Notes under the pieces: generated by a model
Seen by the model: the letters and a program-made list of their open reading frames with translations, nothing else
What the model was told of the DNA's origin: nothing
Database searches by the model: none
Origin: a virus
Reading direction: 5' to 3' (one strand)
Length of the DNA stretch: 61,754 nt
IMG/VR virus record: IMGVR_UViG_3300017613_001703
Shown: positions 8,319-61,745 of the stretch, piece by piece
Position numbering within the stretch: the first letter of the stretch is position 1
Layout of the letters: every line of letters begins with the position of its first letter
Position numbers and translations under genes: made by a program

Positions 8319-8625
8319 AAGGAACTAAAATGAAAAAAGTAGTAGGATTAATTGTATTCATGGCGGCAGCATTTTTATTCGTCGGGTGTTTCGAGCGTGA
8401 AGAGACGGCTAGTCCGCCAACCGCACCAGCAAAACGGTTGACCAATGCGGAAGTAGCTGCGGGGACATCGACCGAGTACGGGTTGATCACCTCTAAGATT
8501 TATAAAGACAACCTTGGCATTGGTGCTGGTGAGGCCACCACCTACGAGGTGCTGAATACAAACTCTGACGTGGACACTGACCTAACGGATGGTGCTACGG
8601 CAAGTACCGTTCCGGCTGCTGCGGC
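8311..8625 (+). repeat. 315-bp duplicated module, copy B; partner at 5117..5431
   Basis: See copy A. Confidence 0.9.
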
Positions 8626-29199: not shown

Positions 29200-30554
29200 T
29201 GGAACTGGCCGCGGACTTTCCCGAAAAGCTTGGGTTCTTATTCTTCCCTTCACCGTACAAAATTGCAAGGGGTGGACGATCGGGCGCGAAATCTTGGGGT
29301 TTTGCAAGAGCCCTGTTGATTCAAGGGGCGAGGACAAAGCTCAGGATGCTATGCGCCCGTGAAATACAGAAGTCCATTAAAGACTCAGTCCATAAACTTT
29401 TGAAAGATCAGATCGTCCTTCTTGGGTTAGAAGATTTCTATACGGTTCTTGAAACAGAGATCCGTGGGGCCAACGGGACCGAGTTCGCTTTTACCGGCCT
29501 GTCAGAACACACAACAACCACGATTAAATCGTTTGAGGGTGTTGACCGGTGTTGGGTCGAGGAAGGCCAGGCCGTTTCTAAACGATCATGGGACGTTCTA
29601 ATCCCGACCATCCGTAAAGAAGGTTCAGAAATTTGGGTGTCCCTGAACCCGGAATTAGAGACAGACGATACCTATCAACGCTTTGTTGTCAACCCGCCCG
29701 AGGGTTGCCGGGGTGTTGAAATCAACTATCGAGACAATCCCTGGCACAATGACCTGCAGGAAGCTAAACGCCTACACTGTAAGATAAACGATCCCGACCT
29801 GTACGACCATATATGGGAAGGAAAACCGCTGCCAGCCGTCGAGGGCGCAATCTACTATCGTCAGATCATGGAGATGGAGGCACAGAAACGGAACTGCAAC
29901 GTGCCTTACGATCCCATGCTGAAAGTTCACGCGATTCTTGACCTGGGCTGGAACGACTCGTTATCATGCGGTCTGGTACAAAAGGGCGTATCGGACGTTC
30001 GGATCATTGAATCGCTTGAGTGCCACCAGACACCGCTTGACATATTTTCATCCGAGTTAAAGACCAGGCCGTATAATTGGGGCAAGGTCTGGCTCCCGCA
30101 CGATGGTTTCTCCAAGAGCCTGAACAGCGGTGGCCGTTCGTCGTATGACATCCTGACCGCATTGGGTTGGAACTGCGCCACGGAGGAAGAAATCATTAAG
30201 ATGAGCATCGAGGAGGGGATCCGGGCGGTGCGCCTGATGTTTTCACGGTTGTACTTCGATAAGACCAAGGCGTACAACGTCCCGAAAGAGGATGTACCAA
30301 AACCGATCACACCCGGTTTTCATCCCACCGAGTACCATAACCGCCTGGGCGAATCGATCAAGCGGTATCGCCGGCACATCAACCAGAAGACACAAGCCGC
30401 GGGTCAGCCTGTCAAAGATGAAGTTGCCCACGGCGCCGACATGCTTAGATACATCGCTTGCAACATAGACGAGATGACCAATGAAGACGACAACCAGGCC
30501 TTTCGGCTTTCTGGATACAGCTACCAGCCGCTTGACCAAGGAGTAGGGATGTAA
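29199..30554 (+). CDS. terL: terminase large subunit, PBSX/Terminase_3 type (451 aa)
   Basis: ARGGRSGAKSWG (Walker A), RMLCAREIQKSIKDSV, DRCWVEEG (Walker B), IPTIRKEGSEIWVSLNP. Confidence 0.92.
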   Translation: MELAADFPEKLGFLFFPSPYKIARGGRSGAKSWGFARALLIQGARTKLRMLCAREIQKSIKDSVHKLLKDQIVLLGLEDFYTVLETEIRGANGTEFAFTGLSEHTTTTIKSFEGVDRCWVEEGQAVSKRSWDVLIPTIRKEGSEIWVSLNPELETDDTYQRFVVNPPEGCRGVEINYRDNPWHNDLQEAKRLHCKINDPDLYDHIWEGKPLPAVEGAIYYRQIMEMEAQKRNCNVPYDPMLKVHAILDLGWNDSLSCGLVQKGVSDVRIIESLECHQTPLDIFSSELKTRPYNWGKVWLPHDGFSKSLNSGGRSSYDILTALGWNCATEEEIIKMSIEEGIRAVRLMFSRLYFDKTKAYNVPKEDVPKPITPGFHPTEYHNRLGESIKRYRRHINQKTQAAGQPVKDEVAHGADMLRYIACNIDEMTNEDDNQAFRLSGYSYQPLDQGVGM

Positions 30555-36213: not shown

Positions 36214-37254
36214 ATGGCTACCCAGAAATATAGTACTAAAGCGTCCCGGAATCTTATCCGGGCAGAACTCAAGATGCTGAAGCATGTTGAAAACATTACC
36301 GTTCTTGGCAAGTTCGGTCAGCAGAAGGAGCAACCGCTTCGCAAAACTGACACAATCGTTTTCCGGCGGCTGCAGCCCTTCAACGCGACCGCCACCGAAA
36401 CCCCGGACATCACCACCGCGAATTTCGTCACCAGTGAGGGCACGACCCCCACGGCGAACACGATTACCTACACGGATGTGTCCGTTACCCTGAGCCAGTT
36501 TGCCGTCCTGTTCAAGTTTTCCAGCAAGACCGAACTGATGTACGAGGAGGACATTCCTGACGATATGGCCACCCTGACCGGACAGACCCTTGGCGAAGTG
36601 GCCGAGCTTGTTTGTTACGGCGCCATGAGAGCCGGATCATCCGTGGTTTACGCCAACGGTGCCAGCCGGGCCGTTGTCAACACCGCCATTTCCATTCGGA
36701 AGCTGCGCCAGTCCGCCCGGACCTTAGAAAGCAACCGGGCCATGCGCGTCACCAAGATGGTTAAGCCGGGTGAAAATTTCGGCACATCGAGCGTGGAGCC
36801 GGCCTATCTGGTTTTTCATCATACCGATTGCAATGCCGACATTCGGGACTTGCCCGGGTTTACCAAGATTCAGGATTACGGGACCGCCATCAAACCGGTG
36901 CATCCCAGAGAGATCGGCGCCTGTGAAGAATTTCGGTTTATTCCCTCCCCGCTGTTTGCTCCGTTCCTGGCGGGCGGCGCGGTTGTTGGGACTTCCGGTA
37001 TGGAAGCCGCTAACAGTACCAACGTCGATGTTTACCCGATGATTATCACCGCCGAGGACGCATGGGGCCATGTGAGCCTTAAGGGCAAGGGTTACACCAG
37101 TATTAGCCCGACCATCATTCCGTCCAACGTGAAAAACCATGCCAACCCATCAGGCATGTTCGGATATGTGGGTGCTGACTTCTGGTATCAGAGCGTTCGG
37201 CTTAACGAAAACTGGATGACCCGGATCGAAGTTTGTGTCTCCGATCTGGATTAA
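36214..37254 (+). CDS. major capsid protein, HK97 fold (N4-gp56-like pattern) (346 aa)
   Basis: AAAGGAGCAGCACA then ATG. TIVFRRLQPF...TSEGTTP...VTLSQFAVLFKFS resembles the N4-gp56 family signature (from memory). Position after the scaffold gene. Confidence 0.8.
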   Translation: MATQKYSTKASRNLIRAELKMLKHVENITVLGKFGQQKEQPLRKTDTIVFRRLQPFNATATETPDITTANFVTSEGTTPTANTITYTDVSVTLSQFAVLFKFSSKTELMYEEDIPDDMATLTGQTLGEVAELVCYGAMRAGSSVVYANGASRAVVNTAISIRKLRQSARTLESNRAMRVTKMVKPGENFGTSSVEPAYLVFHHTDCNADIRDLPGFTKIQDYGTAIKPVHPREIGACEEFRFIPSPLFAPFLAGGAVVGTSGMEAANSTNVDVYPMIITAEDAWGHVSLKGKGYTSISPTIIPSNVKNHANPSGMFGYVGADFWYQSVRLNENWMTRIEVCVSDLD

Positions 37255-46352: not shown

Positions 46353-47432
46353 ATGGGTTTAGATTGGACAGCGGGACTCTTGGGTGCAGCGGCCGGTGGC
46401 GCGAACGCGGTTGACAAGCTTTCTGAGGAACGGCGCAGGGAACTTGCCGAACAACTGAAGCGGGAAGCCCTGGAAGCCATTGCGGTAAGGTCTGATGAAC
46501 GCCGGCACGGTTACGACAAGTCGTTGCAAAAGACTGACATCGAATCGAGTGAAAAGATTGCCGGCGAGCGTAACGACACCAGCCGAGAAATTGCCGGTGA
46601 ACATGACGCTACCAGCCGGGAGATTGCTCAGACACGGCAGAACAACGCCTATAACATTGCCGAGGCAAGAAACACCGTTCTAAAAGACCTTGAGGCGATG
46701 CGTCAGGAAACGGATAAACTAAAGCTTGGTTCGACTGAAGAAAACACTAATGCACGCATGGTGCAGGCAAGGACAGCCGCCTTTAAAGAAGTCGGGAATA
46801 TTGTTGAACGCGGAGGATCCCTTGACGAAATAAATTCGCTCCTATCCCCTTTTAACGTTATGTATAAAATGGGCGTTATTAAGAAGGGAACAGAGGGTGG
46901 ATGGCTACAAAACGGGAGCATTTACGACAAAGGGGAACCCGATGTTACTGGTTTGGTTCTGGTAACGACAGACGGTAAGCCGGTGGGTGGCACTGAAGGA
47001 GGCGCACCGCAAACCGGCCTGAGCCCTTTTTTGTCGGATCTTATCGGTGATCCAGGAGGGGAAACCGGGATAATGTCCGACGAGCCCGGGACGGCGCAGG
47101 CTGCCGAGAGCGCACCGCCAAAAGAGGCTCAGTCCAGGTCACCAGTATCTACCGAGACTGCAGCACCAGAACGGAAAGGCCTTTTAGAGACAGGGGGGCC
47201 AGCACCAAAAGGTCTACCCGAGGATATGGCCGATTGGGATGTAACCACCAAAACAGTGAACGGTAAGAAAGTCCCGGTTGTTATTACTGATTCGGGACCG
47301 GTGGAGTTAACCCAGGAAGAATACGAGTTGTGGAAAAAGTGGCAGGCTGGTCAAGAGCCATCCGGCGTAACCGCTTTGAAGAATGCAAGAAACATAAACG
47401 AAACACCCAACCCCGGACCGAGGCCTTTTTAA
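46353..47432 (+). CDS. hypothetical structural protein (359 aa), internal-virion candidate
   Basis: Abuts the giant gene. Charged helical N-terminus and Pro/Gly-rich middle. Confidence 0.6.
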   Translation: MGLDWTAGLLGAAAGGANAVDKLSEERRRELAEQLKREALEAIAVRSDERRHGYDKSLQKTDIESSEKIAGERNDTSREIAGEHDATSREIAQTRQNNAYNIAEARNTVLKDLEAMRQETDKLKLGSTEENTNARMVQARTAAFKEVGNIVERGGSLDEINSLLSPFNVMYKMGVIKKGTEGGWLQNGSIYDKGEPDVTGLVLVTTDGKPVGGTEGGAPQTGLSPFLSDLIGDPGGETGIMSDEPGTAQAAESAPPKEAQSRSPVSTETAAPERKGLLETGGPAPKGLPEDMADWDVTTKTVNGKKVPVVITDSGPVELTQEEYELWKKWQAGQEPSGVTALKNARNINETPNPGPRPF

Positions 47433-50400
47433 TTGGAACCGCAATACGATTGGCAGACCATCCAGAGCAGCCCTGAATATTGGGATTTAAAACCTGAACA
47501 AAGGGCTCTTGCAAAAGCTGAATACTGGAAGCGATACGTTGAACCGTCCGAAGAACTGAAAGCGTACTCCCCGGAAAAGCAGGAACTCGCCAAGTCCAGG
47601 TTTTTGGAACCGGAAAACTACGTTCCTTATGAGCGTGGCTTTATCGGTGATGTTGGTTCGAGGCTTGCGCGAGGCGGTGTAGGCCTGCTTGAAAGTGTTG
47701 GTGGGGCTATGCGTCTTGCCGATGCGGATCCTACCCAGGAAACCGGGATAGTTGCCAAGGCTGGCAAGAGCCTGGCCGACTTTGCGGAAAGAACCAGGGA
47801 AGGCAGCGACTTTCTAAAACCGGACATTTCCGAAGCGACCGGAGCCGAGGGTGTTGTAAAGCGTGGTTTTGGTGGTGCTGTTGAAAGTGCCATCCCTTCA
47901 CTGGCTCCACTGGCCGGTACGATAGCCGGTGCCAAGGCTGGCGGTCTTTTGGGAACGGCACTCGCCGGGCCTGCTGGCACCCTGCCCGGCACGATCATCG
48001 GTGGCGGGATAGGTGGTATCGGGACCTTGTTTGCTACGTTTGGGTTGGGTCAGTACCAAACCACTTATGACGATACGGTGTCCGAGCTTACCGGTAAGGG
48101 CGTATCCCCGGAAGAAGCGGACATCAAGGCCAGGAAGAACGCGCTTGTTTCAGCTACAGCAGAGGCCGGTGGCGAACTGATTGGCGACCTGGCAGCCATG
48201 ACCTTCTTTGGCGTGTTCGGCGGCCAGGCGGCAAAACAACCGTTGAAGCTGACCATCAAGCAACTGTTGGGCGCCGGCAAGGTCGGATTCGCAAAAGCAA
48301 TAGCCAAATCCGTACCGTTTGAAGTCGGTTCGGAAATGGGCACCGCATATTTTCAGGCCAAGGCCGCGCAAGAAGCGGGTGTCTCGACACTTCCCCCGGG
48401 CGAGGCAATGGCCGAGGCTGTTCTTCCTGCAGTATTCCTTTCCTTAATGTTCGGTGGCGCTGTCCATGGCATGAACCATATCGAGGCCACCAACATCTAT
48501 AACGGTCTGAACTCCAAGGATCCAGAAACCCGGATTCGCGCGGCCGAGTCTATTTCATTGAGGATTAAAGACAAGGAGGAACGGCAGCAGTGGGCGAACA
48601 TCGCCACCGGTTATATTGATTCTGGCGAACAAATGCCACTGGACAAGCCGATCATCGATTTCGCCATCCAGAAAAAAGAGGATGACGGTGGCAAGACGGC
48701 TGACATCCAGAGTGCAACATCTGTTGACGAAGCCCTAAAGGCTTTTGAAGATGCGACCAGACCGCTTGCTCCATCTATCGCTGCCCTAACCGATCCACTG
48801 TACCAGGACAGACTCCAAAGACAGGGGATGATTGATCGAGAGTGGGGTTACGGTCCCGAGTCCGACATTCAGAGGCAAGCACAGTTTCCGGCGCAGACTC
48901 CCGAGGAACAGGCGGCCATGGAAGCTGCCATTGTTGAGCAGCGTAATAAGGGCCCGCGTGAACAGGCTTTAAAAGCAGCGGGTTTGCTGCAGACCTCCGG
49001 TGAAATACCCAGCCAGGGTGTTGACGAAGCGCAGCAGCGCAGGGAAGTCGGCCGGGCCGCCCTGAAATATCCCAAGCCGGAAACACCGACCGGGATAGCG
49101 TTTCCCGAAACCGGGCCTACTCCCGATCGTGTGCCGCCCGGGATGGAGAGGACCGGTGCCTGGACGCATGATCCGGTAGGTGATTATTGGAAAGGCGTTG
49201 CTGCTAAAGAAGGTTTGCTTGAGTCGGCCGCCGAGCCTGAACGTGACTTGACCGAATATTGGGCTAATGTACGGGAAAAGTACGGACTGCAGGAAGAAAC
49301 ACCCGAGCCGCCACCGGTTGACACATCCGATGCAGAGTTTAAAGCGTGGGAACAGAAAGCCCAACGGGGTTTGACCGAAGAAGAAAAGGCCGAGTTTGCC
49401 GCCGAGATAGAAAAAGCGTCTGAATACAAAGGCATAATATCCGGCAAGGGGGAAGACGGCAAGACGGTCAAGCCTGCGCCTGCCGGGAAGAACGTCAAGG
49501 GAATCGTGGTTGAAGAGGAGTTTGAACCGACATCAAAAGATGAGTTAATAGAAAAATATCGCATCTATGAACGTGAGTTTGACAAAAAGATCAAGGAACA
49601 CGGAAGCGTTAGCGCAGCAGAAACACATGCGCTTGCATCTTCTGGACTGTTGCAGGAAGGTGTTGCTGCGGCAAGACATCATTTAGGTTTGCCAAATACA
49701 ATGAAGCCAGGGACGCCTTTAATGGAACGGGAAAAACCCACCCCCCCCATCAAAGGCCCCCAGACCAAGAAAGAAAAGGCGGCCAAGGCAACAGGAGTGC
49801 GTCGTGGTGAAGTCGGTGGGAAGATGCGCGAGGGCGAAGTTGTTATAACTTCTTCTGGCAGAAAAACGTCACCGTTCCCCAAAGTATCGTTTGGCACAAA
49901 CCGCAAGGCCACCCTCACAGTTAGGAGGGGAGAACAGTGGTTAATTAAAGAAGCTGCCGAAGAAGCAAAATCAAGGGGTGACGGATTTAACCAGCGCAGC
50001 TTTGAACAAGACATTGGTGTTAAAAATGTCCCGCAGGCCAGCAAGGATTCAGCAGAGGAATACCTTTTTGGCGAACAACCGGAAATACCTAAAAGCATTT
50101 TAAAGCCGCTGATACCGAAAGAACCTATCAAAGGCCCAACCTCAAAGAAAGAAAAGGCGCTGAAGGAATACCGTGACTATGTTGCCGCCCTTTCCACCGA
50201 ACAGCGCGAGGCGGTTTCCGACCTGATTGAAAAGGAACCGAAGCGACCGTCCGGGGCGCTGTTTAAGTTGCGGAAGGCTGTTGATGCGGCGAAACCGAAA
50301 AAGGCAGCGACAGAACCAAAGGCGCCTAAAACTGCTATCCCTGTTCAAGATAAAGATTTAAAAACGATACAAGAAATAACAGACCGAATAAAATCTATTG

Positions 50401-53400
50401 AAAAACAACGTGATGAATTAGAGCCCCCTGTTGAACATCACAAGTTTGCTGATTTTGAAAAAAGACTTGCTCGATTTACGAAAAGGCATGATTTTTTGTG
50501 GGCAAAACGGGCGAAACTTTTGTCTGAACAGAAAAGCCAGAAAGACACGCCGGGACCGGAAACCAAAGAGCCCAAAGCACCGGCCAGTAAGCCAAAGTAC
50601 GGCGAGAAGAACAAACTTTTCACCAAGGATTCCGCAGATGCGGCCCGTGAATTGTTACGGAAAAAGCTCGGCCAGGTCAGCACAGGGCTTGACCCTGAAC
50701 TAGTTCAGGCCGGTATCCAGCTTGCAGGGTATCATATTGAAGCCGGTGCGCGATCTTTTGGTGATTATGCAGCAGCCATGATTGCCGACCTCGGGAATGC
50801 GGTTAAGCCTTACCTCCGTGGATGGTATGAAGCAGTCCGGTATTATCCCAGCTTTGACGCAAAGGGTATGACGGAAGCGGCTGACATAAACGAAAAAGAC
50901 TTGACCGACACCAAAAAAGTGATTAACAATAAGGAAGAAAAGGAGGTGCCTGATGGAACGCTACGCGAACCAACTGAGGAACCACCTGAAGGAGAACAAG
51001 CAGGCGATGTTTCTGGAACTGTTGAAGGCGAAACGCCTGGATCAACATTGCCGGGACCGGGGGGCCGAGGCAGAAAAGGAACTTCACGAAATGACGGCGG
51101 CAGGGATGCCGGACTTCATGGCGAACGAGATCGTGGTCAAGAACCTGCTGACAATGTAGATTATTCGATAACCCCCGATGATGCTCTCGGCGCAGGTGGA
51201 CCGAAGCAAAAATATAAAGATAATGTAGCCGCTATCCGGGTTTTAAAAGACCTCGGACCCCGCAAGGCTACACCCGAAGAACAGGCCATTCTTGTTAAAT
51301 ACGTTGGATGGGGTGGCCTGCCACAAGCTTTCCCAAAGCCTAACGGCGATGTTTCAACCGGTTGGCAATCCGAAGTCGACGAACTCCAAGACGTTTTATC
51401 GTCCGAAGAATACGCGGCAGCGCGGAAAAGCACCCAGGACGCCCATTACACCAGCGCCACCGTAGTTGGTAAGATTTACGATGCCATTAAAAAGTTTGGG
51501 TTTAAGCAAGGCAAGATCCTTGAGCCAGCCATCGGCACGGGTAATTTTGTCGGCCTCATGCCTGCATCTATTCGCAGCAGGTCGAGCATAACAGGGATTG
51601 AGCTTGACCCCATCACGGCGACCATAGCAGATAAGCTTTACCCGAAACAGCGCATTGTTAATTCTGGGTTTGAATCAGTTTCAATAGCGCCGGGTAGTTT
51701 CGATCTTGCTATTGGCAACCCGCCTTTTGGTGATAAAAAGCTATTCGATTCACAACATCCTGAGTTTAAATCCTTCTCTATTCATAATTTCTTTTTCGCC
51801 AAAAGCCTTGTCGGTTTGCGTCCTAACGGCCTTTTGTCCATGGTGGTAAGTTCATCAATGATGGATAAGCGCGGAATGGACCAGCGTAAATGGTTGGCAG
51901 GCAGGGCCGAGCTTGTTGGGGCAATCAGGCTCCCGAACACTGCTTTTAAAAGCAATGCCGGCACAGAAGTTACAACTGACATCCTGTTCCTACGAAAACT
52001 GATGGACGGCGAACAAATCCCAGACGCTAAATGGATAGATTTAAAACCGATAGAAGCAGAGGACGGTACAAGCTACCTCGTTAATGAATATTTTGCCGAT
52101 CATCCTGAAATGGTTTTAGGTGTACCGGTAAAAAATAAGCTCCACCCGGGCGAAGTCGTTGACGGCGTTTATAAGGGAGTCGCCGGGTTTGCCCCGAATG
52201 AGGGTGTTGACCTGGGAGAAGCGATTGATGCGGCTGTATCGTTTTTGCCGAAAGATATTTATAGGGCAGGACAAACAGTTGAAGAAGTGCAACGCCCTGA
52301 GATTCTTGTTTCAGACGTTGGTTTTTCGCAACCTTACGGATATACGGTTGACGATAGCGGCAATGCTGTCCGGCGCCTACCGGATGTAAACGGCGAGCAT
52401 GTGTTTGAGCCGGTCCTGTACGCGGGTAAACCGTTGGCTGGCAAGCGCCTTGAAAAATTTAAAGGGCTCTTGAAAATAAGGGACGCGGTTAGAACGCTAA
52501 TCCGGGCAGAAATTGCAGACGAAAGCAAAGCGACTCTTGACCGGTACAGAAAAAAACTGAATAGGGTTTATGATGGTTTCGTAAAAAAGCACGGCTATAT
52601 TTCAGTGCCGGCTACCTCGAAAGTTTTAAATCAGGATCCGACTGACCTTCCCCTGTTGAGATCACTGGAGGAAAAATTCGATTCGGGTGTTTCCGCTGCT
52701 GTTGCCAGAAGGACCGGAGAGAAACCGCGTGGTCCGAGAGCAAATAAATCTTCTATTTTTACAGTAAGAACCCGGGAACCATACCGTGAAGCAACAACCG
52801 CGGCAAACGCTAAAGATGGTCTTGCGATTGTCTTGCGCGAAGACGGCTATGCTGACATTGACCGGATTGCAGAACTGACAGGGAAGACGGTTGACGAAGC
52901 GGTAAAGGACCTGGCCGACATAATTTTCAAGAACCCGGTGACTGAAGGATATGAGACTTCAGACATCTACCTTTCTGGTAACGTAAAGAAAAAACTCACG
53001 CAGGCTAAGGAAGCACGATCAAGGGATGCAGTTTATAACGATAACGTGGAAGCGTTAAAAAAGGTTCTCCCTAAAGATGTACCGGTCGAGAAAATCCACT
53101 TTGAAGTCGGAGCTACTTGGATTCCGGCCCAGGTCTACGAAGATTTTTCAAGGGAAGTCCTTGAGCGAAATGCAACGGTTCAATATATCGAGGATGTTGG
53201 TGTCTGGAACATCAAAGTTGAAAAGGGAATAAGCCCTTTTGACAGTACCCGGAGATCGGCGGCAAAAATATACACCGACTTAGTTACCGGTTCTGATGTT
53301 GCTGTTTATGAATATATAGATAAAAAACGGGTTTTCGATAGGGAAGGCACCGTAGACGCGCAACAGAAAGCGAAAGAAATCAATAGTGCCTTTCAGGATT

Positions 53401-56400
53401 GGGCGTTGAACGATACAGACAGAAGAAAGATAATATCTAAGAATTTCAACGATAAAGTAAATACGACCATTGATGGCAAGTTTGATGGCAGCCACATGGT
53501 TTTTCCTGGTATGGGAGTTATAACCACTGGCGTCAAGCGCGACGATCAACTAATGGCCCACCAAAAGAATGTTGTTTGGCGGCTCATTCAAAAAGGGAAG
53601 GGTCTTGTCGATCATGTTGTCGGAAGCGGGAAAACCTTTCTTTCAATAGCAACCGGGATTGAAATGAAGCGCATGGGCCTTTTAAAGAAACCCATGTATG
53701 TTGTCCCTAACCATCTTGTAGGGCAGTGGGCAATGGATTTCCAACGGCTTTATCCTGGCGCAAAAGTCCTTGTGATTGACAAAACAAACTTTGTTAAAAG
53801 CAAGCGGCAAGAATCTATGGGCCGAATCGCCACGGGTGAGTGGGATGCGGTGCTTGTGGCTCATTCCAGTTTTGGTTTTGTAAAGATGCCGTATGAATAT
53901 GAAAAGAAATTCTATGCCGACCAGATTGCCCAATACGAAGCGGCAATAGTCGCACTTTCCAAGTCAGAAGGGAAAAAGTCTCGGTCCGTTAAACAGATGG
54001 AGAACGCCAAGGATAAACTCAAATCGAAGATGCAAGCCTTGGCTAATCGACCAAAGGATGCAACGGTTGACTTCTCCGAGCTTGGTGTTGATGCCCTGTT
54101 TGTGGATGAGGCGCATGAGTTTAAAAACCTGTTCTATGCAACTAAACGCAACAGGGTAGCAGGGCTTGGGAACCAAAAAGGAAGCCAAAAAGCCTTTGAT
54201 ATGTTCGTTAAGACTCAGTTTATTAGCGAAACGAACAACGGCAGAGGGGTATTCTTTTTAACCGGCACACCCGTTTCAAACTCCATTTCTGAAATGTATA
54301 CAATGATGCGGTATCTTGAATATGACCGCATGAAAGAAATGGGTATCCGACATTTTGACCAGTGGGCAAATATGTTTGCGTCTGCTGTTTCAGATTGGGA
54401 GGTTGACCCATCTGGGACACGGTATCGTCTTCAGACAAAAATGGATTTCGTTAATGTCCCGGGATTAATGGCGTTTTATAAAGACTTTGCCGATGTGGTT
54501 AGCACAGACGATTTGCAAAAATGGGCCAAAGAACGTGGGCAGACTTGGCCTATTCCAGACATAAAGGGTGGAAAGCCTGAAACGGTTGTTGCTGAAAAGT
54601 CGGACCTGCAAAAGAACTTTATGGATTGGATTGTCCAACGGTTTGATAATATGCCGTCCGATCCAAAAGAAGATAATCCGCTGAAAGCAACCGGCGAGGC
54701 AATGAAGGGATCGCTCGATATTAGGTTGATTAATCCATCCTTACCTGACCATCCGGGTTCCAAAGTCAACCTTGCGGTAAAGAATATTACAGCAACTCAT
54801 AAAAAATGGAACGCCCGGAAGGGAACTCAGCTTGTTTTTTGTGACTTGAGCGTACCAAGCAAAGCAAAGGGTAAACACACTGCTGAAATAAAAGCACTTC
54901 AGCAACGAATCCGCAAACTTGAAACAAAACTTGAAGCGGAAACAGATCCAGAAAAGCTGTCAAGTATTGAAGAAGAATACACGAAACTGACAGACAAGTT
55001 TGAAAAATATTCGCCTGCCGAGCTTATGGCCGCGAGTTCAAAGTTTTCAGTCTATGACGATGTAAAGGCAAAGCTGATTTCTAACGGGATACCTGAAAAC
55101 GAGATTGCTTTTATCCATGACGCTAACACCGATCTTCAAAAAGAAGACTTATTTTCAAGGGTTAGGAATGGTCGTGTTCGTGTGCTAATCGGGTCAACAA
55201 GCAAAATGGGCGCTGGCATGAACGTTCAAAATCGTTTAGTTGCCTTGCACCACCTTGACGCACCATGGAGGCCGAGCGATCTTGAACAGCGTGAAGGCCG
55301 TATTATCAGGCAGGGCAACAAGTTTTTCATGGAGGCCCTAAAGAAAGGCGAGAAATTTGCTGTTGATATTTTCCGATACGCCACAAAAGAAACGCTGGAT
55401 ACAAGGCGCTGGCAGATAATCGAGCGCAAAGCGAAAACGATTGAACAGCTCAGAACTGGCAACCTTCAATGGGGTGAAGTGATTTCAGACACTACGGGTG
55501 CCGCCGCGAACGCCGCAGAAATGAAGGCGGCGAGTAGCGGGAACCCGCTTATACTTGAAGAAATCCAGGCAAAAAAAGACCTTGAAACTCTTGAGATGGA
55601 AAAGCGGTCAGACCGGTCAAAACGTTTTGGGTTCAAAAATACTATCGAGCATAGGGACAAACTTGAAAAGAGTTATAAAGGCGACCGCAAGACCATTGAA
55701 AAAGACATAAAATTTATTGAAAACCATCCGAGAGATAACACCCCAGAAGGTTGGTCGGTTTTCATCAACGAAAAACAATACACGGCAAAGGGCCTTATAA
55801 GTGTTCCTAAAAAATACGAAGGCAAGGACAAGGGCGAAAAGAAAGCCAACGCGAAAGCGATTAAAGATGCAACAGAAAACAATGCCAAAGCCCTGAAGAA
55901 AGCAAAGGCCGATTTTGAAGTTGGCATTAAAAAAGAACTTGTCCCGTATCTTGTAAGGGACTTGAAGGCTAATCTTGCAGATTTTACCGTATCAATTAGA
56001 GGAATAGAGTTTGATGTAACCAGGAACCATTATTCACCAACTATAAATTTTGAGCCAAGCATTGGTGTGGCGCAAATTTTTAGCCGTGCGTTATGGCACA
56101 GTTACGGGCCCTCTTATGATGTGAGAGATTTGAATTCAGACGGTCTTTTTGTTGAAGGGCTTATTATCCGGTTGCACAATGCTATCGGCAGCATGGTAAA
56201 TGATAGAGAAGTCGCCGAACAAAACATGAAAAAGAATCGGGAAGAAGCGAACCGGGAAGCCGACATTGCCGATCGTGGCCTCAAGAAACCTCCGTTTGAT
56301 GAAACCAAGATTCAAGATGCCCGGAAAAAGCACACGGACATTTTAACTCAACTTCAAACAGAAAGCGCAAACGAGCCTACCGAGGTTCCTGATTTTTCAA

Positions 56401-59400
56401 TGTGGACCGATCAGGTGATCGAACGGTCAGCGAGTCCGACACCTACCCCGGGATACTATGAACGGGCCAAGGGACCCAGCGGCGAAATGGAATGGCTTCC
56501 CGCAATAGGGTCTAAAAAGATAGAAATTTACCCTTGGGTAGAAACTTTTGTAAGAAAAAAGGAAATCGGCACTAAAAATATTTGGTCTGTTTCCGAGGCG
56601 TCAACAGGTTCAAAGTTTCCTGGTTCATTCGGTACTCGTAAGGCCGCTGTATCTGATGCGAAAAGACAACTTGATAATGTAGGAAAAGATGCTTTTCTTG
56701 ATATGATAAAGAGCCATATCGCTAATATAGGGGAGTCTCCATGGAGTACTGGCAAGCCGAAACTCTCCACCAAGACCGACCGCCGCACCCATCCCAAAGA
56801 TCCTGGCGGAGCAGAGTACACAGAACAAACCCGTCGTAGTCCGTTAACGCCAAGATTACGCAGAAAAGACCGGCGCGGCGACACGATTACCGCTAAACAA
56901 GTAGCGGCAGAATTTCGCAAGATGGGGTTTGGTTCAAATATTGCCGGTGATAGTGTCACCGTCAGAACTCCGACCGGCAGTATAGCCATAAACGTTGCTG
57001 ACAGCATCGTAACGGACGACGGTGCCACGATTTCATTCTCTTACGGGCGCGAGGCCAAGGCGGGGGAGAAAGTCGCAGGGTCGTACTTTAATGGCGCTAT
57101 TGACCTGAAGCGCAATTTAGCCGACAAATTTACGTTATCGCACGAACTGTTCCACCACATGAAAACGGCGGGGCTATTCAATCCTGCTGAAGAAGCCCTG
57201 TTGGCAAAGCACGGTGACGAAGAAGCGCAGGCCCGTTGGATTGAAGGACAGTTGCGAAATCGAAAGAATACTCGCGGTATTGCCGGCAAGCTGGTTCAGA
57301 AGGTTCGGGACTTTATTGACGCGATCGTCAATTCATTCATCAGGACGGAACGAGGCATATTGAGGGATGTCGAGGCCGGTAATATTCTGCAGCGCCAGGG
57401 AACCCCGAACGCCAATGAAACACAGCACTCCACCATAGCCGGTCGGTGGCAGTCGCAGATGGCCAACTTCCTTTCCGACAAACTCCCCGGTTCAGGTAGT
57501 CCAAAACAGATTTTACAGACGTTGGATTCTTGGGCCAAGAAGGGGTTGATAAAGTCTGAGGAACTGGAATGGTCGGGGTTGCGGGAGTGGCTTGCAGAGC
57601 AAGATGGCAAGGTCGGGAAACAGGACATCCTCGACTTCCTGGCGGCGAATCATGTTCAGGTTAAGGAAGTGGTGAAAGGGAAGCAGTCCAAATACACTAT
57701 AGATGATATCGAAAACGGGGAATTAGAGCAATTAGAAGACGGGACTTGGGCTGTATGGCAGGGTGAATTTGCAGAACAAGTGGGCGAAGGTGAAACCGAA
57801 CAAGCCGCAATTGATGATGCTGTTAAGACTCTCGGAATAGCCGGTATGTCTGTAGACGACACCAAATTCTCCCAATACCAGGAACCCGGCGGGGAAAATT
57901 ATAAAGAGCTTCTGCTTACGCTGCCGGAAACGAAGCAAAAAGTCGAAATCCCAAAAATAGCAGAGACGAAACAGGGGTACGATGATAGATGGTTTGTGTC
58001 TGACCAAAATGGGGATCAAATAAGTGGTGATGGTCACCCAACGAAAGAGGGAGCAATTGAGAAAGCCAAAGCTCATATTGATAGATATACTAAAGAGATA
58101 GCTCCGCAAAAATCTCAATACAAATCCCGCCACTTCGACGAGCCAAACGTATTAGCGCATGTCCGCTTCAACGAACGCACCGGGCCTGACGGTGAGCGGG
58201 TTTTGTTTATTGAGGAAATCCAGAGTGACTGGCATCAGGAGGGGCGTAAGAAGGGGTACAAAGGTAAAGGATTGCCGCCTGGTTACCGGGTATCGGGGTC
58301 ACCAAATGATTTGGGCCGTTTTGTTGTTTACGATAGTAATGGAGTGATTATACCCTCCCCACGCGGACACGCCACAGAACAAGAAGCCATTGCTTATGCA
58401 GTGAAGAAAATCGACGTACCCCCCAACGCCCCCTTCAAAAAGACCTGGCCCATGCTCGCCATGAAGCGCATGGTCCGCTACGCAGCGGAGAACGGCTTCG
58501 ATCAGATTGCTTGGACACCGGGGGAGGTGCAGGCTGATAGATATGATTTTAGTAAACAGATAAAAGAAATTTTCTATCGTCAACATAGCGATCAGTCTGA
58601 TAAATATGAGTTTAAAGCAACTGCTCATAGTGGTGAAACCGTAATTGAAGAAGTTGGTATACCGTTATCGCGCATTGAAGAAATATCGGGGAAAGAAATT
58701 GCCGAAAAGATAAAAAACGGAAAGGGCACGGACAATTCTGCCGCCCTTAGAGAATGGGGAGAACAGACCGGGGTTAACCTTAATGTTCAGGCTGGCCAAG
58801 AAGGAAGGGTACTCTCCGGCCTCGACCTAAAAGTAGGCGGCGAAGGCATGAAGGGTTTTTACGACAAAATTCTGCCTGCTGCCGCCAACAAATTCTTCGG
58901 CAAGAAGGCTTGGGGTGGGGCGCGGGTGGGAACGGCAAAAGTAGCCGCTGATGATACTAAATACACCGTTGAAAAATACGGTGAAATTTACAGGATACGT
59001 CAAAACGGTGTGTTGTTGCACGGCCCCGGATTTAAATCCGCAGAGGCCGCATGGTCAAGGGTAGAAAAGGCCCAAGAATCCGATTTAAAAGAAGTCTGGT
59101 CCCTCCCCATAACCCCCCAGATGCGGAGCAAGGCGTTGTACGAGGGGATGCCGATGTTCAGCACAAAGATCATCGACACCCTAACCAACGAAGTCGGCAG
59201 CAGCCAGCTGGCCACGGACATCTACAACTTTGCGAACGGCCTGGTACAATCAGGAATTAAATCGTTCAAGGTTTTTACGGCCAGAATTTACAATAAATTC
59301 AAGGAAGTTTACAAAAAGATCAAACCTCACTTAAAATCAATGTGGGACACCCTGAACAATCAGGGCGGCTACATCGTACTCCAAGAGGGCGAACAGAAAC

Positions 59401-61745
59401 ACTCCTACCAGGAAACGCTTGAGCCCGTTACAGATCAGGACGTTATTGAAAACCGGAAATCGAAACGGAACGTCAAGCTTGCTGCAGAAACAACTATTGC
59501 CCGGATCGGATCGGAAATGGCCGAGGGGATTGATAAGTTTACCGGGGCCATATCGACCAGGTTGGGCAACATCAGTAAAAAAATAAAATCCAAGATACGG
59601 CGGCTGGACTTTGACATCAACAAAAAATCAGCCGCGGACGTTGAGGCAGTCATGCCTCTGCTTAAAAAAGCCCGGAAGAAGATGACCCGGGACGATTACG
59701 CAGATTGGGACTATGTCCGTAAAAACTCAGCCATCGACAAGATAAATGAGCTAATCGACAAGTATGGCCTGCGAACCGAATACGATAAGTACCGGGAGGT
59801 TTTAACCCGGTTGCGGCGTGAGGGTCTTGATGTGGGCCTTGAGATAGGGCTCATACAAGAATACGCGCCCAGGATATTAAAGGACCCCAAAGGTTTTCTG
59901 ACCGCCATTGGCAAGGATCCTGATTGGGGGGTTTACAGCGAACAGATAAAGAAACGGGCTAAAGAGCTAGATATGGACATGGAGGATATGGACATCGACC
60001 AGAAAGCGGCGATCGTATCCAACATGATCCTTGGCGGTTACTCAGGCCTGGGTGGTGTGCCAGCAACGAAAGAAAGAAAGCTCAAAAAAATACCTGCCTA
60101 TCTGAATCGATTCTACATGGATTCGGACGGGGCCCTGATGCGGCATATCTACGGGATGCGGAAACTAATCGAGGGTAGAAAGTTTTTCGGTAAGATCCCG
60201 AAGAAGGTTGCCGAGATGCGGCGGCGGTTGCGCCTGGCCGAAACTCACATGCGGAAGCTTCAGGATGAAATGAAAACCGCGTCCACCGAAGATAAAGCCA
60301 AGATGAAAAAACGGTGGAACAAACTGTTCGGGCTCAAAAAACAGTACCAGGCGTATCTTGATAAATACTCGATGCAACGTGATTACCGGCAGAATATCGG
60401 TGCCTATGTGGTGGAACTGATCGAATCGGGCGAGATCCGGCCTCACCAAGAACGTGTTGTCAATGAGATCCTAAACGCGAGATTCCACGAAAAAGGCGCC
60501 TACGGAGTCGTACAGGCGTACAAAAACCTTTCCTATATGGATACCATGGGTTCACCCATCAGCGCCTTGACACAGATAGGTGACATGGCTTGGGCGGCCT
60601 TTGACGGTGGACTTATAAAGGCACTGAAACATGCCGGCCGATCGATACTTAAAAAATCACGGATTACCAAGGAGGATGTTGGGATAGAACGAATCGCCCA
60701 AGAGTTTGAGGACGCCGGATCCTTGGGCAAGGCGGTTTCGTTTGTGTTCAAATGGGTAGGCCTGGAAAAGATTGACTCGATCGGTAAAGAGGCTTTGCTG
60801 AACACGGCCTTTGAAAAATATAAAAAGCAGGCCAAGAGCAACCCGGACAAGTTGAAGTCCCAAATATCAGAAATCTTTGAAGATGAAACCGATCAGGTTA
60901 TCGAAGACCTGAATAATGACGAAATTACCGACAACGTAAAGCTATTGGTTTACAGCAGGCTGCTTGACTTTCAACCGGTGGCCCTGTCCGAGATGCCTGA
61001 AAAATACCTGACGGCCGGTAATGGTCGCCTGTTTTACATGCTGAAAACATTCACGTTAAAGCAGTTTGATATTTATCGCAACGAGATTTACAACAAATTC
61101 AAGAACGGCGATCGGGCAGACAAGGTTCAGGCCATAAAGAATCTTGTGAGGCTCACAATGTTTTTTGTGATTGCCAATGCTGGCGCCGACGAACTGAAGG
61201 ATTGGGTGCTTGGCAGAAAGACCGACTTTGAGGACAGGGCGGTGGATAACATGCTACGCCTGGCCGGGGTATCGAAGTTTTACACATGGAAAGCCCGGAC
61301 GGAGGGTATCGGGTCCGCTACCCTGAAACTGATACTGCCGCCTGTGAAGTTCATCGATTCGCTGACCAAGGACATCACAAAGGCCGGGGATGAAAAGGGC
61401 CTGGAAACTGTTGGATCCATACCGCTGGTTGGTAAGTGGGCATACTGGCGCATGGGCCGCGGGGTAAGTAAGCGTGACGATCTTTGGGACATTCGGCTTA
61501 GAAAAGAAAAGCGCCGGCTGAACGATATTAAAAACCGGATGGAAGAAGCCCCCAACCAAAACGCCTTCAGGCAAAAATATAACCGGGAACTATCGAGACT
61601 CCGTAGGGCAAACGCGCTGCAGGGCAGGTTGAACAATTTTAAACAAAGAATCAACCGGTTAAAAAAGTCGGGTGGAAACAAGGCCGATATTGACAGGCTT
61701 GCCAATAAAAGGATAGACTTCATTAAACAATTTCTTAAAGAATAA
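47433..61745 (+). CDS. giant polyvalent-type protein (4,770 codons): Gly-rich TM segments, N6-adenine DNA MTase, SNF2-family helicase, HExxH metallopeptidase and further conserved modules; putative ejected internal virion protein
   Basis: Uninterrupted 14,313-nt frame, TTG start directly after the preceding TAA. Motifs are listed in the sub-features. It sits where T7-like phages carry gp16. Confidence 0.85.
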   Translation: MEPQYDWQTIQSSPEYWDLKPEQRALAKAEYWKRYVEPSEELKAYSPEKQELAKSRFLEPENYVPYERGFIGDVGSRLARGGVGLLESVGGAMRLADADPTQETGIVAKAGKSLADFAERTREGSDFLKPDISEATGAEGVVKRGFGGAVESAIPSLAPLAGTIAGAKAGGLLGTALAGPAGTLPGTIIGGGIGGIGTLFATFGLGQYQTTYDDTVSELTGKGVSPEEADIKARKNALVSATAEAGGELIGDLAAMTFFGVFGGQAAKQPLKLTIKQLLGAGKVGFAKAIAKSVPFEVGSEMGTAYFQAKAAQEAGVSTLPPGEAMAEAVLPAVFLSLMFGGAVHGMNHIEATNIYNGLNSKDPETRIRAAESISLRIKDKEERQQWANIATGYIDSGEQMPLDKPIIDFAIQKKEDDGGKTADIQSATSVDEALKAFEDATRPLAPSIAALTDPLYQDRLQRQGMIDREWGYGPESDIQRQAQFPAQTPEEQAAMEAAIVEQRNKGPREQALKAAGLLQTSGEIPSQGVDEAQQRREVGRAALKYPKPETPTGIAFPETGPTPDRVPPGMERTGAWTHDPVGDYWKGVAAKEGLLESAAEPERDLTEYWANVREKYGLQEETPEPPPVDTSDAEFKAWEQKAQRGLTEEEKAEFAAEIEKASEYKGIISGKGEDGKTVKPAPAGKNVKGIVVEEEFEPTSKDELIEKYRIYEREFDKKIKEHGSVSAAETHALASSGLLQEGVAAARHHLGLPNTMKPGTPLMEREKPTPPIKGPQTKKEKAAKATGVRRGEVGGKMREGEVVITSSGRKTSPFPKVSFGTNRKATLTVRRGEQWLIKEAAEEAKSRGDGFNQRSFEQDIGVKNVPQASKDSAEEYLFGEQPEIPKSILKPLIPKEPIKGPTSKKEKALKEYRDYVAALSTEQREAVSDLIEKEPKRPSGALFKLRKAVDAAKPKKAATEPKAPKTAIPVQDKDLKTIQEITDRIKSIEKQRDELEPPVEHHKFADFEKRLARFTKRHDFLWAKRAKLLSEQKSQKDTPGPETKEPKAPASKPKYGEKNKLFTKDSADAARELLRKKLGQVSTGLDPELVQAGIQLAGYHIEAGARSFGDYAAAMIADLGNAVKPYLRGWYEAVRYYPSFDAKGMTEAADINEKDLTDTKKVINNKEEKEVPDGTLREPTEEPPEGEQAGDVSGTVEGETPGSTLPGPGGRGRKGTSRNDGGRDAGLHGERDRGQEPADNVDYSITPDDALGAGGPKQKYKDNVAAIRVLKDLGPRKATPEEQAILVKYVGWGGLPQAFPKPNGDVSTGWQSEVDELQDVLSSEEYAAARKSTQDAHYTSATVVGKIYDAIKKFGFKQGKILEPAIGTGNFVGLMPASIRSRSSITGIELDPITATIADKLYPKQRIVNSGFESVSIAPGSFDLAIGNPPFGDKKLFDSQHPEFKSFSIHNFFFAKSLVGLRPNGLLSMVVSSSMMDKRGMDQRKWLAGRAELVGAIRLPNTAFKSNAGTEVTTDILFLRKLMDGEQIPDAKWIDLKPIEAEDGTSYLVNEYFADHPEMVLGVPVKNKLHPGEVVDGVYKGVAGFAPNEGVDLGEAIDAAVSFLPKDIYRAGQTVEEVQRPEILVSDVGFSQPYGYTVDDSGNAVRRLPDVNGEHVFEPVLYAGKPLAGKRLEKFKGLLKIRDAVRTLIRAEIADESKATLDRYRKKLNRVYDGFVKKHGYISVPATSKVLNQDPTDLPLLRSLEEKFDSGVSAAVARRTGEKPRGPRANKSSIFTVRTREPYREATTAANAKDGLAIVLREDGYADIDRIAELTGKTVDEAVKDLADIIFKNPVTEGYETSDIYLSGNVKKKLTQAKEARSRDAVYNDNVEALKKVLPKDVPVEKIHFEVGATWIPAQVYEDFSREVLERNATVQYIEDVGVWNIKVEKGISPFDSTRRSAAKIYTDLVTGSDVAVYEYIDKKRVFDREGTVDAQQKAKEINSAFQDWALNDTDRRKIISKNFNDKVNTTIDGKFDGSHMVFPGMGVITTGVKRDDQLMAHQKNVVWRLIQKGKGLVDHVVGSGKTFLSIATGIEMKRMGLLKKPMYVVPNHLVGQWAMDFQRLYPGAKVLVIDKTNFVKSKRQESMGRIATGEWDAVLVAHSSFGFVKMPYEYEKKFYADQIAQYEAAIVALSKSEGKKSRSVKQMENAKDKLKSKMQALANRPKDATVDFSELGVDALFVDEAHEFKNLFYATKRNRVAGLGNQKGSQKAFDMFVKTQFISETNNGRGVFFLTGTPVSNSISEMYTMMRYLEYDRMKEMGIRHFDQWANMFASAVSDWEVDPSGTRYRLQTKMDFVNVPGLMAFYKDFADVVSTDDLQKWAKERGQTWPIPDIKGGKPETVVAEKSDLQKNFMDWIVQRFDNMPSDPKEDNPLKATGEAMKGSLDIRLINPSLPDHPGSKVNLAVKNITATHKKWNARKGTQLVFCDLSVPSKAKGKHTAEIKALQQRIRKLETKLEAETDPEKLSSIEEEYTKLTDKFEKYSPAELMAASSKFSVYDDVKAKLISNGIPENEIAFIHDANTDLQKEDLFSRVRNGRVRVLIGSTSKMGAGMNVQNRLVALHHLDAPWRPSDLEQREGRIIRQGNKFFMEALKKGEKFAVDIFRYATKETLDTRRWQIIERKAKTIEQLRTGNLQWGEVISDTTGAAANAAEMKAASSGNPLILEEIQAKKDLETLEMEKRSDRSKRFGFKNTIEHRDKLEKSYKGDRKTIEKDIKFIENHPRDNTPEGWSVFINEKQYTAKGLISVPKKYEGKDKGEKKANAKAIKDATENNAKALKKAKADFEVGIKKELVPYLVRDLKANLADFTVSIRGIEFDVTRNHYSPTINFEPSIGVAQIFSRALWHSYGPSYDVRDLNSDGLFVEGLIIRLHNAIGSMVNDREVAEQNMKKNREEANREADIADRGLKKPPFDETKIQDARKKHTDILTQLQTESANEPTEVPDFSMWTDQVIERSASPTPTPGYYERAKGPSGEMEWLPAIGSKKIEIYPWVETFVRKKEIGTKNIWSVSEASTGSKFPGSFGTRKAAVSDAKRQLDNVGKDAFLDMIKSHIANIGESPWSTGKPKLSTKTDRRTHPKDPGGAEYTEQTRRSPLTPRLRRKDRRGDTITAKQVAAEFRKMGFGSNIAGDSVTVRTPTGSIAINVADSIVTDDGATISFSYGREAKAGEKVAGSYFNGAIDLKRNLADKFTLSHELFHHMKTAGLFNPAEEALLAKHGDEEAQARWIEGQLRNRKNTRGIAGKLVQKVRDFIDAIVNSFIRTERGILRDVEAGNILQRQGTPNANETQHSTIAGRWQSQMANFLSDKLPGSGSPKQILQTLDSWAKKGLIKSEELEWSGLREWLAEQDGKVGKQDILDFLAANHVQVKEVVKGKQSKYTIDDIENGELEQLEDGTWAVWQGEFAEQVGEGETEQAAIDDAVKTLGIAGMSVDDTKFSQYQEPGGENYKELLLTLPETKQKVEIPKIAETKQGYDDRWFVSDQNGDQISGDGHPTKEGAIEKAKAHIDRYTKEIAPQKSQYKSRHFDEPNVLAHVRFNERTGPDGERVLFIEEIQSDWHQEGRKKGYKGKGLPPGYRVSGSPNDLGRFVVYDSNGVIIPSPRGHATEQEAIAYAVKKIDVPPNAPFKKTWPMLAMKRMVRYAAENGFDQIAWTPGEVQADRYDFSKQIKEIFYRQHSDQSDKYEFKATAHSGETVIEEVGIPLSRIEEISGKEIAEKIKNGKGTDNSAALREWGEQTGVNLNVQAGQEGRVLSGLDLKVGGEGMKGFYDKILPAAANKFFGKKAWGGARVGTAKVAADDTKYTVEKYGEIYRIRQNGVLLHGPGFKSAEAAWSRVEKAQESDLKEVWSLPITPQMRSKALYEGMPMFSTKIIDTLTNEVGSSQLATDIYNFANGLVQSGIKSFKVFTARIYNKFKEVYKKIKPHLKSMWDTLNNQGGYIVLQEGEQKHSYQETLEPVTDQDVIENRKSKRNVKLAAETTIARIGSEMAEGIDKFTGAISTRLGNISKKIKSKIRRLDFDINKKSAADVEAVMPLLKKARKKMTRDDYADWDYVRKNSAIDKINELIDKYGLRTEYDKYREVLTRLRREGLDVGLEIGLIQEYAPRILKDPKGFLTAIGKDPDWGVYSEQIKKRAKELDMDMEDMDIDQKAAIVSNMILGGYSGLGGVPATKERKLKKIPAYLNRFYMDSDGALMRHIYGMRKLIEGRKFFGKIPKKVAEMRRRLRLAETHMRKLQDEMKTASTEDKAKMKKRWNKLFGLKKQYQAYLDKYSMQRDYRQNIGAYVVELIESGEIRPHQERVVNEILNARFHEKGAYGVVQAYKNLSYMDTMGSPISALTQIGDMAWAAFDGGLIKALKHAGRSILKKSRITKEDVGIERIAQEFEDAGSLGKAVSFVFKWVGLEKIDSIGKEALLNTAFEKYKKQAKSNPDKLKSQISEIFEDETDQVIEDLNNDEITDNVKLLVYSRLLDFQPVALSEMPEKYLTAGNGRLFYMLKTFTLKQFDIYRNEIYNKFKNGDRADKVQAIKNLVRLTMFFVIANAGADELKDWVLGRKTDFEDRAVDNMLRLAGVSKFYTWKARTEGIGSATLKLILPPVKFIDSLTKDITKAGDEKGLETVGSIPLVGKWAYWRMGRGVSKRDDLWDIRLRKEKRRLNDIKNRMEEAPNQNAFRQKYNRELSRLRRANALQGRLNNFKQRINRLKKSGGNKADIDRLANKRIDFIKQFLKE
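47889..48470 (+). other. giant protein: Gly/Ala-rich hydrophobic (membrane-inserting) segments
   Basis: AIPSLAPLAGTIAGAKAGGLLGTALAGPAGTLPGTIIGGGIGGIGTLFATFGLG; GELIGDLAAMTFFGVFGG; AVLPAVFLSLMFGGAVHG. Confidence 0.6.
50953..51159 (+). CDS. embedded out-of-frame ORF (68 aa) inside the giant gene; candidate overlapping gene
   Basis: AAAGGAGGTG (50938..50948), 4-nt spacer (CCTG), ATG 50953. The peptide MERYANQLRNHLKENKQAMFLELLKAKRLDQH...AGMPDFMANEIVVKNLL is helical and not junk-like. The main frame here is E/G/P/R low complexity. Confidence 0.4.
   Translation: MERYANQLRNHLKENKQAMFLELLKAKRLDQHCRDRGAEAEKELHEMTAAGMPDFMANEIVVKNLLTM
51160..52150 (+). other. giant protein: N6-adenine DNA methyltransferase module
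   Basis: KYVGWGGLPQAFP (about 51296). Motif I ILEPAIGTGNFVG (51516..51554). Motif IV AIGNPPFGD (NPPF at 51717..51728). Confidence 0.85.
53540..55450 (+). other. giant protein: SNF2/DEAD-like helicase module
   Basis: Motif I VGSGKTF (~53619..53639), motif II VDEAHEFKN (DEAH 54105..54116), motif III FLTGTPVSNS, motif V GSTSKMGAGMNVQ, motif VI LEQREGRIIRQGN (~55281..55319). Confidence 0.85.
56990..57330 (+). other. giant protein: zincin-like metallopeptidase module
   Basis: LSHELFHHM (HELFH at 57141..57155). Confidence 0.55.
58130..58560 (+). other. giant protein: conserved module of unknown function
   Basis: HFDEPNVLAHVRFNERTG..RVLFIEEIQSDWHQEGRKKGY and TWPMLAMKRMVRYAAENGFDQIAWTPGEVQADRY look like domain cores seen in other very large phage/plasmid proteins (from memory, unnamed). 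Confidence 0.4.

Follow-up and report, generated by a model that had tools for sequence, protein, structure and literature searches.

A putative TnpV-family gene nested out of frame within the giant DarB-like antirestriction gene of a tailed phage

Genes lying in another reading frame within a longer gene are found in several phages, such as Rz1 in Rz of phage lambda and E in D and B in A of phiX174. The subject of this study is an arrangement of this kind in the IMG/VR virus record IMGVR_UViG_3300017613_001703 (61,754 nucleotides, nt; this whole stretch is referred to below as the window), where a 68-codon open reading frame (ORF) at 50953..51159 is very probably a real gene with a translation start of its own, nested in the +1 frame of a giant DarB-like gene, the nested start lying at the frame of the giant gene plus one. 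As in the lambda and phiX174 pairs, a complete ORF with its own Shine-Dalgarno sequence (SD) and start codon lies wholly within a longer gene of the same strand, and both products are presumed to be made. In contrast to those pairs, the host gene in the window is polyvalent and 14 kb long, and what it shares with the nested gene is a linker instead of a folded domain. Furthermore, it is the nested reading that appears conserved and is probably older, while the host reading is degenerate, and pairs of this type seem to be conserved across phages and conjugative elements of several phyla.

Both partners have described relatives. The host gene resembles P1 DarB and other polyvalent proteins (PMC5512222) in having a core of a methyltransferase (MTase) and an SNF2-type helicase, extra domains and a neighbourhood of virion genes, but the nested gene constitutes a component outside the domain list of the polypeptide. 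Neither TnpV nor overlapping genes or reading frames in this sense come up in the survey of polyvalent proteins (Iyer et al., 2017; PMC5512222). The small protein is related to TnpV (PF14198) of Tn4451/Tn4453-type transposons and Firmicutes conjugative elements, for which an Xis-like role in excision has been postulated based on a weak likeness to lambda Xis (PMC3158075). The canonical and the window forms share a homologous helical core with the motif ..Y...L+..LKE..P..Y..L...G.L..+ and both reside on mobile DNA. However, the window protein has 68 amino acids (aa) versus approximately 113-125 in canonical TnpV, it is devoid of the N-terminal GDYLIPNL segment and of much of the C-terminal part, and its gene is nested out of frame, whereas tnpV is treated as free-standing in the literature.

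The components of the locus are as follows:
47433..61745, plus strand: host gene for a polyvalent DarB-like antirestriction protein, 4,770 codons (phrog_10089, expectation value E = 0).
50547..50897, plus strand: conserved helical domain of the host protein, aa 1039-1155, LDPELVQAGIQLAGYHIEAGARSF..., in the phrog_938 region.
50940..50948, plus strand: SD of the nested gene, AAGGAGGTG, with an 8-nt match to the anti-SD complement.
50953..51159, plus strand: nested gene, 68 codons and TAG, for a short four-helix protein assigned to the TnpV family (8.0 kDa, isoelectric point 6.8).
50952..51158, plus strand: host-frame reading of the nested-gene DNA, aa 1174-1242 of the giant protein, a low-complexity linker DGTLREPTEEPPEGEQAGDVSG...GQEPADNV.
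51159..56387, plus strand: MTase-helicase module, aa 1243-2985, beginning with DYSITPDDALGAGG directly after the nested-gene stop.

The start of the nested gene consists of the SD, the 4-nt spacer CCTG (50949..50952) and the ATG at 50953, and the host frame decodes the SD itself as the codons K-E-V. These signals, the TAG at 51157..51159 and the 68-residue peptide had been proposed in an earlier inspection of the letters alone (the sequence-only reading) and are all exact. Two details of that reading needed correction. The nested ORF is in the +1 and not the +2 frame of the giant gene, and its TAG does not precede the MTase module by one codon; it is placed 2 nt before the module start and shares nt 51159 with GAT, the first codon of this conserved module. 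Local RNA structure around the nested SD was not significant (z = -1.5). A single weak sigma-70-like match (TTGACC, 18 nt, AACAAT; 9/12) was found as a candidate internal promoter at 50901-50930, about 10 nt 5' of the nested SD; promoter matches in the region did not exceed the level of shuffled sequences, and the sigma-70-like consensus may not be that of the host.

The likeness to TnpV noted in the sequence-only reading was supported by profile comparisons. The nested peptide matched the Pfam TnpV profile with 24.7 bits (E 2.4e-5) over positions 25-72 of 111, while its positional homologues in the related loci L005, L004 and L006 matched it with 46.2 bits (E 5e-12, above threshold), 20.3 bits (E 5e-4) and 14.9 bits, respectively. 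Alignment of the short family with canonical NCBI-named TnpV in hhalign gave a probability of 96.8% (E 2.8e-10, 48 columns, 35-82 of 124), and jackhmmer started from the window peptide reached canonical Firmicutes TnpV ORFs. Homologues of the peptide, a search for which had been recommended, were also found, as an exhaustive HMMER search of 1.8 billion representative proteins retrieved seven end-to-end matches of 66-69 aa with 35-45% identity (best E 9e-10). A word-indexed protein search with the nested peptide alone gave no match, tblastn of the peptide against GenBank phages gave one chance match only (E = 2), blastn of the region against phages retrieved just short MTase fragments, and NCBIfam contained no model matching any TnpV-like peptide. 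The search of representatives also returned a protein of 532 aa (P0005) with eight tandem repeats ...LSTWDTERLRQYCRDRGQYAGGSRQDVEQRV... matching residues 17-40 of the peptide (E 6e-6). It was kept out of the alignment as an apparently unrelated repeat protein sharing the 'L.QYCRDRG' string.

AlphaFold2, with only 8 sequences as input, modelled the nested peptide as four helices with a predicted local distance difference test score (pLDDT) of 92.5. A Foldseek search of BFVD matched a TnpV-like segment annotated in frame, probably from phage PBC5, at a template modelling (TM) score of 0.88. The best match among solved structures was PG0816 (PDB 2apl), a structural-genomics protein of Porphyromonas gingivalis (probability 0.98, TM 0.71, 62 residues, root-mean-square deviation 1.7 Å); PG0816 differs in having 149 aa and 18% identity (E 0.94) and says nothing on mechanism. 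Judged by its sequence, the nested protein appears to be a truncated TnpV subfamily, shorter at 68 aa than the canonical form with its GDYLIPNL segment. Its location on a tailed phage, with relatives on phages, prophages, plasmids and conjugative elements, agrees with the mobile-element location of the family.

The host gene comprises an N-terminal region, the MTase, an SNF2/ResIII helicase and a long C-terminal region, with Pfam matches above threshold to Eco57I, ResIII, SNF2-rel_dom and Helicase_C; an N6-adenine MTase and an SNF2/ResIII helicase are thus combined in one giant phage polypeptide, as expected of a DarB-like protein. The helical domain at 50547..50897 precedes the linker, and homology to L021, L101 and L001 begins there. 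The linker itself consists of 90% small, polar or charged residues, with 23% Gly and 9% hydrophobic residues, and conservation across groups is absent in that frame. Single-sequence AlphaFold2 returned coil for this segment with pLDDT 39, a model too poor to count.

All related loci were anchored by tblastn on the start of the MTase module, and they included 15 IMG/VR viral contigs, 80 named genomes, 20 metagenome contigs and several GenBank phages and plasmids. In the metagenome scan a single-protein query gave no relatives, while a two-sequence alignment query gave the 20 loci. TnpV-like ORFs were present in the +1 frame of the giant gene in at least 90 of approximately 118 related loci, and when all six-frame ORFs of the loci were searched by jackhmmer from the window peptide, every match fell on the gene strand and was +1 relative to the host frame at that point. 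Of three seeming exceptions, L050 and L100 are interrupted by a frame break or N-runs on the way from the TnpV region to the MTase module and are still +1 locally, and the third is a free-standing TnpV gene past the end of the giant gene. The metagenome set replicates the pattern, with 14 hidden Markov model matches, all +1, and a related +1 ORF family in most of the others.

The closest relative is L021, a contig of a Desulfosarcina metagenome-assembled genome (MAG) whose MTase is 72% identical. Both L021 and L016 repeat the geometry of the window, with the same SD and ATG, an ORF of 68 codons and a stop placed 2 nt ahead of the module, and L104 does likewise with 69 codons; at a nucleotide identity of 59-67%, these three loci still have the ATG, a strong SD, the conserved residues and a length of 68-69 codons. 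In more distant loci, where the MTase is 27-55% identical, the TnpV-like ORFs are longer and occupy either this position or one further upstream. Giant genes of Firmicutes conjugative elements contain a canonical TnpV of 113-117 aa, 2-3 kb ahead of the MTase module, and the host frame reads the overlapping DNA as a low-complexity stretch, ...SDEQHQELSGGDSFIGADLQLN. The nested ORF is also located inside the giant gene of 12 cultured phages (Atu_ph08, PBC5, POI1126, Pavtok, PEp14, Stean, Mwe-JY07, VvAW1, Itty13, LASTA, SJM3 and SopranoGao), in which annotation covers the giant gene only, and a 59-kb circular Brucella element shows the same. Over the nested ORF the host frame is open in each of the 67 strictly embedded cases, and it continues for kilobases on both sides. 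Based on these comparisons, nesting appears to be conserved in this class of polyvalent genes, whether they belong to tailed phages, to prophages or to conjugative elements of Firmicutes.

A further observation concerns the plasmid NZ_OY725736.1 of Monoglobus pectinilyticus (L102), in which a 'TnpV protein' is annotated at 5992..6345 in a frame-open region extending from approximately 5307 to the MTase module at 8847. No giant coding sequence is listed over 5307..8847, which would mean either an incomplete gene table in PLSDB or a giant gene flagged as a pseudogene.

The start signals recur together with the ORF. A SD match of at least 6 nt at a distance of 3-11 nt precedes 48 of the 75 TnpV-like ORFs (64%) versus 1.1% of 8,115 control out-of-frame ATGs in giant genes, an enrichment of approximately 58-fold. 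The substitution patterns of two subgroups point in the same direction. Counts at nested codon positions 1/2/3 were 554/448/842 in Rhizobiales and 37,907/28,526/52,491 in Firmicutes, and amino-acid identity was higher in the nested than in the host frame (0.64 vs 0.44 and 0.60 vs 0.42, respectively). Such an excess at the third position is what a protein encoded in the nested frame leaves behind, and the host frame would show the reverse. These counts bear out the suggestion that the main frame is degenerate since the alternative one is constrained. The host frame, in turn, is apparently kept open by selection: given the nested protein and genome codon usage, the median probability of an open host frame is 0.035 when computed for the domain and 0.002 for the full ORF. 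In the window, with the nested protein fixed and codons resampled by genome usage, the host frame was open in only 0.6% of cases (0.006). Only 4 of the 68 nested codons end in T, versus 25% in the giant gene, which indicates avoidance of T|AA, T|AG and T|GA in the host frame.

The length of the nested ORF by itself is not beyond chance. When the amino acids of the linker, which is rich in G, E, R and P, were fixed and codons resampled, the +1 frame stayed open over 68 codons in 57% of trials, so that the improbability of an open frame implied by the sequence-only reading does not hold. Additionally, two stop-to-stop stretches elsewhere in the +1 frame of the giant gene are longer than the 78 codons of the one that holds the nested ORF. 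What does exceed chance are the start signals of the nested ORF, its homology and its conservation. Among the 10 same-strand alternative-frame ORFs of at least 50 aa in the giant gene, the combination of an ATG, an 8-nt SD and a conserved homologue (in L021, E 1e-22) is found in the nested ORF only. That the ORF arose by chance from a purine-rich linker, whose E, G and K codons would yield an SD-like string, an ATG and an open frame with a helical-looking translation rich in K, E and L, therefore seems very improbable. The resampling result, the comparable open +1 stretches elsewhere and the origin of the SD from K-E-V codons are in line with it, but it leaves unaccounted for the significant homologues, some of them free-standing genes, the Pfam and hhalign ties to TnpV, the repetition of position and frame across approximately 90 loci, and the lack of these properties in all 9 other alternative-frame ORFs of the giant gene.

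Free-standing members of the family were also encountered. P0002 in L017 is free-standing with the other frames closed, P0007 in L125/L126 has DUF1376 and IstB-like genes as neighbours in a phage early region, P0054 in L127 stands beside hipBA, and the tnpV of Tn4451-type elements is free-standing and adjoins recombinases. In some Firmicutes loci a second, free-standing TnpV lies just downstream of the giant gene, besides the nested copy, and these second copies have their own strong SD (GGAGGT, spacing 8):
L051, 8170..8520: second free-standing TnpV.
L070, 8869..9240: second free-standing TnpV.
L083 and L095, 8890..9261: second free-standing TnpV.
L091, 10249..10617: second free-standing TnpV.
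Since free-standing relatives exist, the small protein would function by itself. Furthermore, homology across phyla is confined to the nested frame, and the family has free-standing members; the small nested gene is therefore probably the older reading and the linker of the giant gene the overprinted one.

We thus favour an overprinted gene, an option that the sequence-only reading had listed and that start signals, homology, recurrence and selection bear out. Ribosomes binding the internal SD would start at the ATG at 50953, produce the 68-residue four-helix TnpV-family protein and stop at the TAG. Those already on the giant gene would read the same 207 nt one base earlier, as a flexible linker rich in Gly and charged residues between the upstream helical domain and the MTase module. 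In this way the giant gene would read through the small one, whose codon choice, with few codons ending in T, may be tuned to avoid stops in the read-through frame.

Several observations weigh against this interpretation. The nested peptide scores below the TnpV gathering score (24.7 vs 27 bits), and SDs are weak in some Rhizobiales loci, in L008 and in L036. In the closest trio (window, L021 and L016) substitutions are even, 77/67/76, and identity is 0.475 vs 0.473 in the two frames; given this flat pattern, selection in the nested frame is inferred mainly from homology and the other subgroups. The uniform +1 relation is also no proof of a single origin, because the remaining host frame contains an unavoidable TGA (ATG followed by A) in 65/70 loci and is mechanically impossible there; this argument was rejected. 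In addition, the homologues in Tn4451 and in phage early regions occur without a giant gene, which argues against an obligatory partnership of the two proteins.

The flat pattern of the closest trio also bears on the alternative that survives best, although we consider it unlikely. According to this, a tnpV-like gene was swallowed when modules fused, its DNA now codes for the linker alone, and the ORF and SD are unused leftovers. Equal conservation of both frames in the trio fits this, as do the ease with which linker codons leave the +1 frame open and a host frame that requires just an open, flexible stretch. However, a silent relic would be expected to lose its ATG, SD and length, which L021, L016 and L104 keep in spite of their divergence, and neither the third-position bias in the nested frame of relatives nor the confident AlphaFold2 model would be expected of it. 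Of the captured-domain relic suggested in the sequence-only reading, one part stands, as the small gene is probably older and the giant gene reads through it; the evidence speaks for a maintained gene and not for a relic.

Recoding is highly unlikely. In that case, ribosomes translating the N-terminal part would shift into the nested frame and produce an N-terminal-TnpV fusion ending at the TAG, while those that do not shift would make the MTase-helicase. Such a product is suggested by phage PBC5, where orf33 (the N-terminal part) shares the frame of the TnpV-like segment and terminates at the stop of that segment, with the methylase as a separate orf23, and by L019 and L020, which switch frame just upstream of the nested ATG. 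The canonical SD and ATG of the window and of most relatives nevertheless fit independent initiation, the PBC5 shift may be a sequencing error of 2001 given that its relative Atu_ph08 is continuous, and no usable slippery site was found. The candidate in the window, the A-run at 50911-50916, was rejected, as it runs directly into a +1-frame TGA. The recoding option put forward earlier therefore finds no support in this window.

The frame changes themselves deserve a separate description. Sinorhizobium phage PBC5 (L123, AF448724.1, 6500..8100) has the arrangement given above, whereas in Atu_ph08 (L124) there is one continuous gene with the TnpV-like ORF nested at +1; the former represents either a 2001 sequencing frameshift or a natural fission variant. 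The in-frame record of N-terminal part and TnpV-like segment in PBC5 probably explains the BFVD match. In the metagenome contigs L019 (548..620) and L020, which come from different samples, the helical domain, the nested ORF, and the linker with the MTase start lie in three frames, and the N-terminal ORF stops approximately 10 codons past the nested ATG. As the same change is seen in both contigs, it may be real. The changes in PBC5, L019 and L020 may be errors, or natural fission variants at a junction seemingly prone to frame changes.

Finally, an assembly artefact, in which two compensating indels would have put an in-frame helical domain out of frame, is effectively excluded, as the geometry is identical in independent assemblies (the Desulfosarcina MAG contig L021, L016 and L104), nesting is found in finished genomes of cultured phages, and the nested ORF has its own start and stop codons exactly at the boundaries. 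Nothing in favour of an artefact was found, and a search of public sequencing runs returned none that contains this stretch.

With respect to its surroundings, the giant gene forms the end of a tailed-phage structural module:
29199..30554: terminase.
30554..32767: head-tail connector-family protein, 737 aa (phrog_332, annotated as head-tail adaptor).
36214..37254: major head protein, followed by tail proteins.
Upstream of the giant gene, a 359-codon ORF (46353..47435) lies in the same frame and is split off by the single TAA at 47430..47432. The first possible start of the giant ORF is the TTG at 47433, which abuts this stop (TAATTG), with GAGG about 10 nt 5'. The two ORFs could be translationally coupled, or they could represent a single, even longer gene in a fused or split form. 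At the other end, aa 2986-4770 of the giant protein (56388..61745), more than a third of the gene, gave only faint Pfam and PHROG matches, none of them significant.

Concerning function, the contexts in which the family occurs (serine-recombinase transposons, phage early regions and delivered anti-restriction genes) suggest a role when the DNA enters or the element becomes established. We consider this the most likely point of action of the TnpV-like protein, which might be a small factor in DNA transactions or else assist the giant protein as its partner or chaperone. A direct partnership with the giant protein is possible, although we would sooner expect that there is none. Nesting would guarantee that the small gene is inherited and transcribed together with the delivered anti-restriction protein.

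The TnpV family, and even some nested copies of it, are already in databases, and NCBI names nested Firmicutes ORFs 'TnpV protein' (e.g., WP_242826959.1). The short subfamily of the window is represented by 9 proteins among 5.8 billion clusters in a profile search, none of them named; those that were traced are free-standing genes or stand on contigs too short for a giant ORF. No description of the nesting was found in the full-text literature on TnpV, on overlapping genes in such elements or on polyvalent proteins, the searchable literature being incomplete.

Few same-strand nested genes of bacteria and of their DNA phages are well supported, and such genes are suppressed by annotation pipelines. 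The present one is backed by homology, start signals, substitution patterns, codon-choice statistics, free-standing relatives and approximately 100 loci, and it is missing from the annotation of at least 12 cultured phages. Tractable systems carrying the arrangement are available among phages of Klebsiella (SopranoGao and LASTA), Erwinia (PEp14 and Pavtok), Agrobacterium (Atu_ph08), Pseudomonas (Itty13) and Vibrio. In a large class of polyvalent proteins with an anti-restriction role, the low-complexity linkers would be a shifted reading of tnpV, and the TnpV family would become physically linked to a defined machine. A broader proposal, which we judge rather more doubtful than probable, is that the nesting of tnpV in polyvalent methylase-helicase genes is old and crosses phyla, that the linkers read through a pre-existing small gene, and that its protein is a required co-factor (chaperone, adaptor or regulator); the span may include elements of Desulfobacterota, Alpha- and Gammaproteobacteria, cyanobacteria and Firmicutes. 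If true, few same-strand nested pairs in prokaryotic mobile elements would be as well supported or as widespread as this dual coding, and it would explain the odd low-complexity stretches of the giant proteins.

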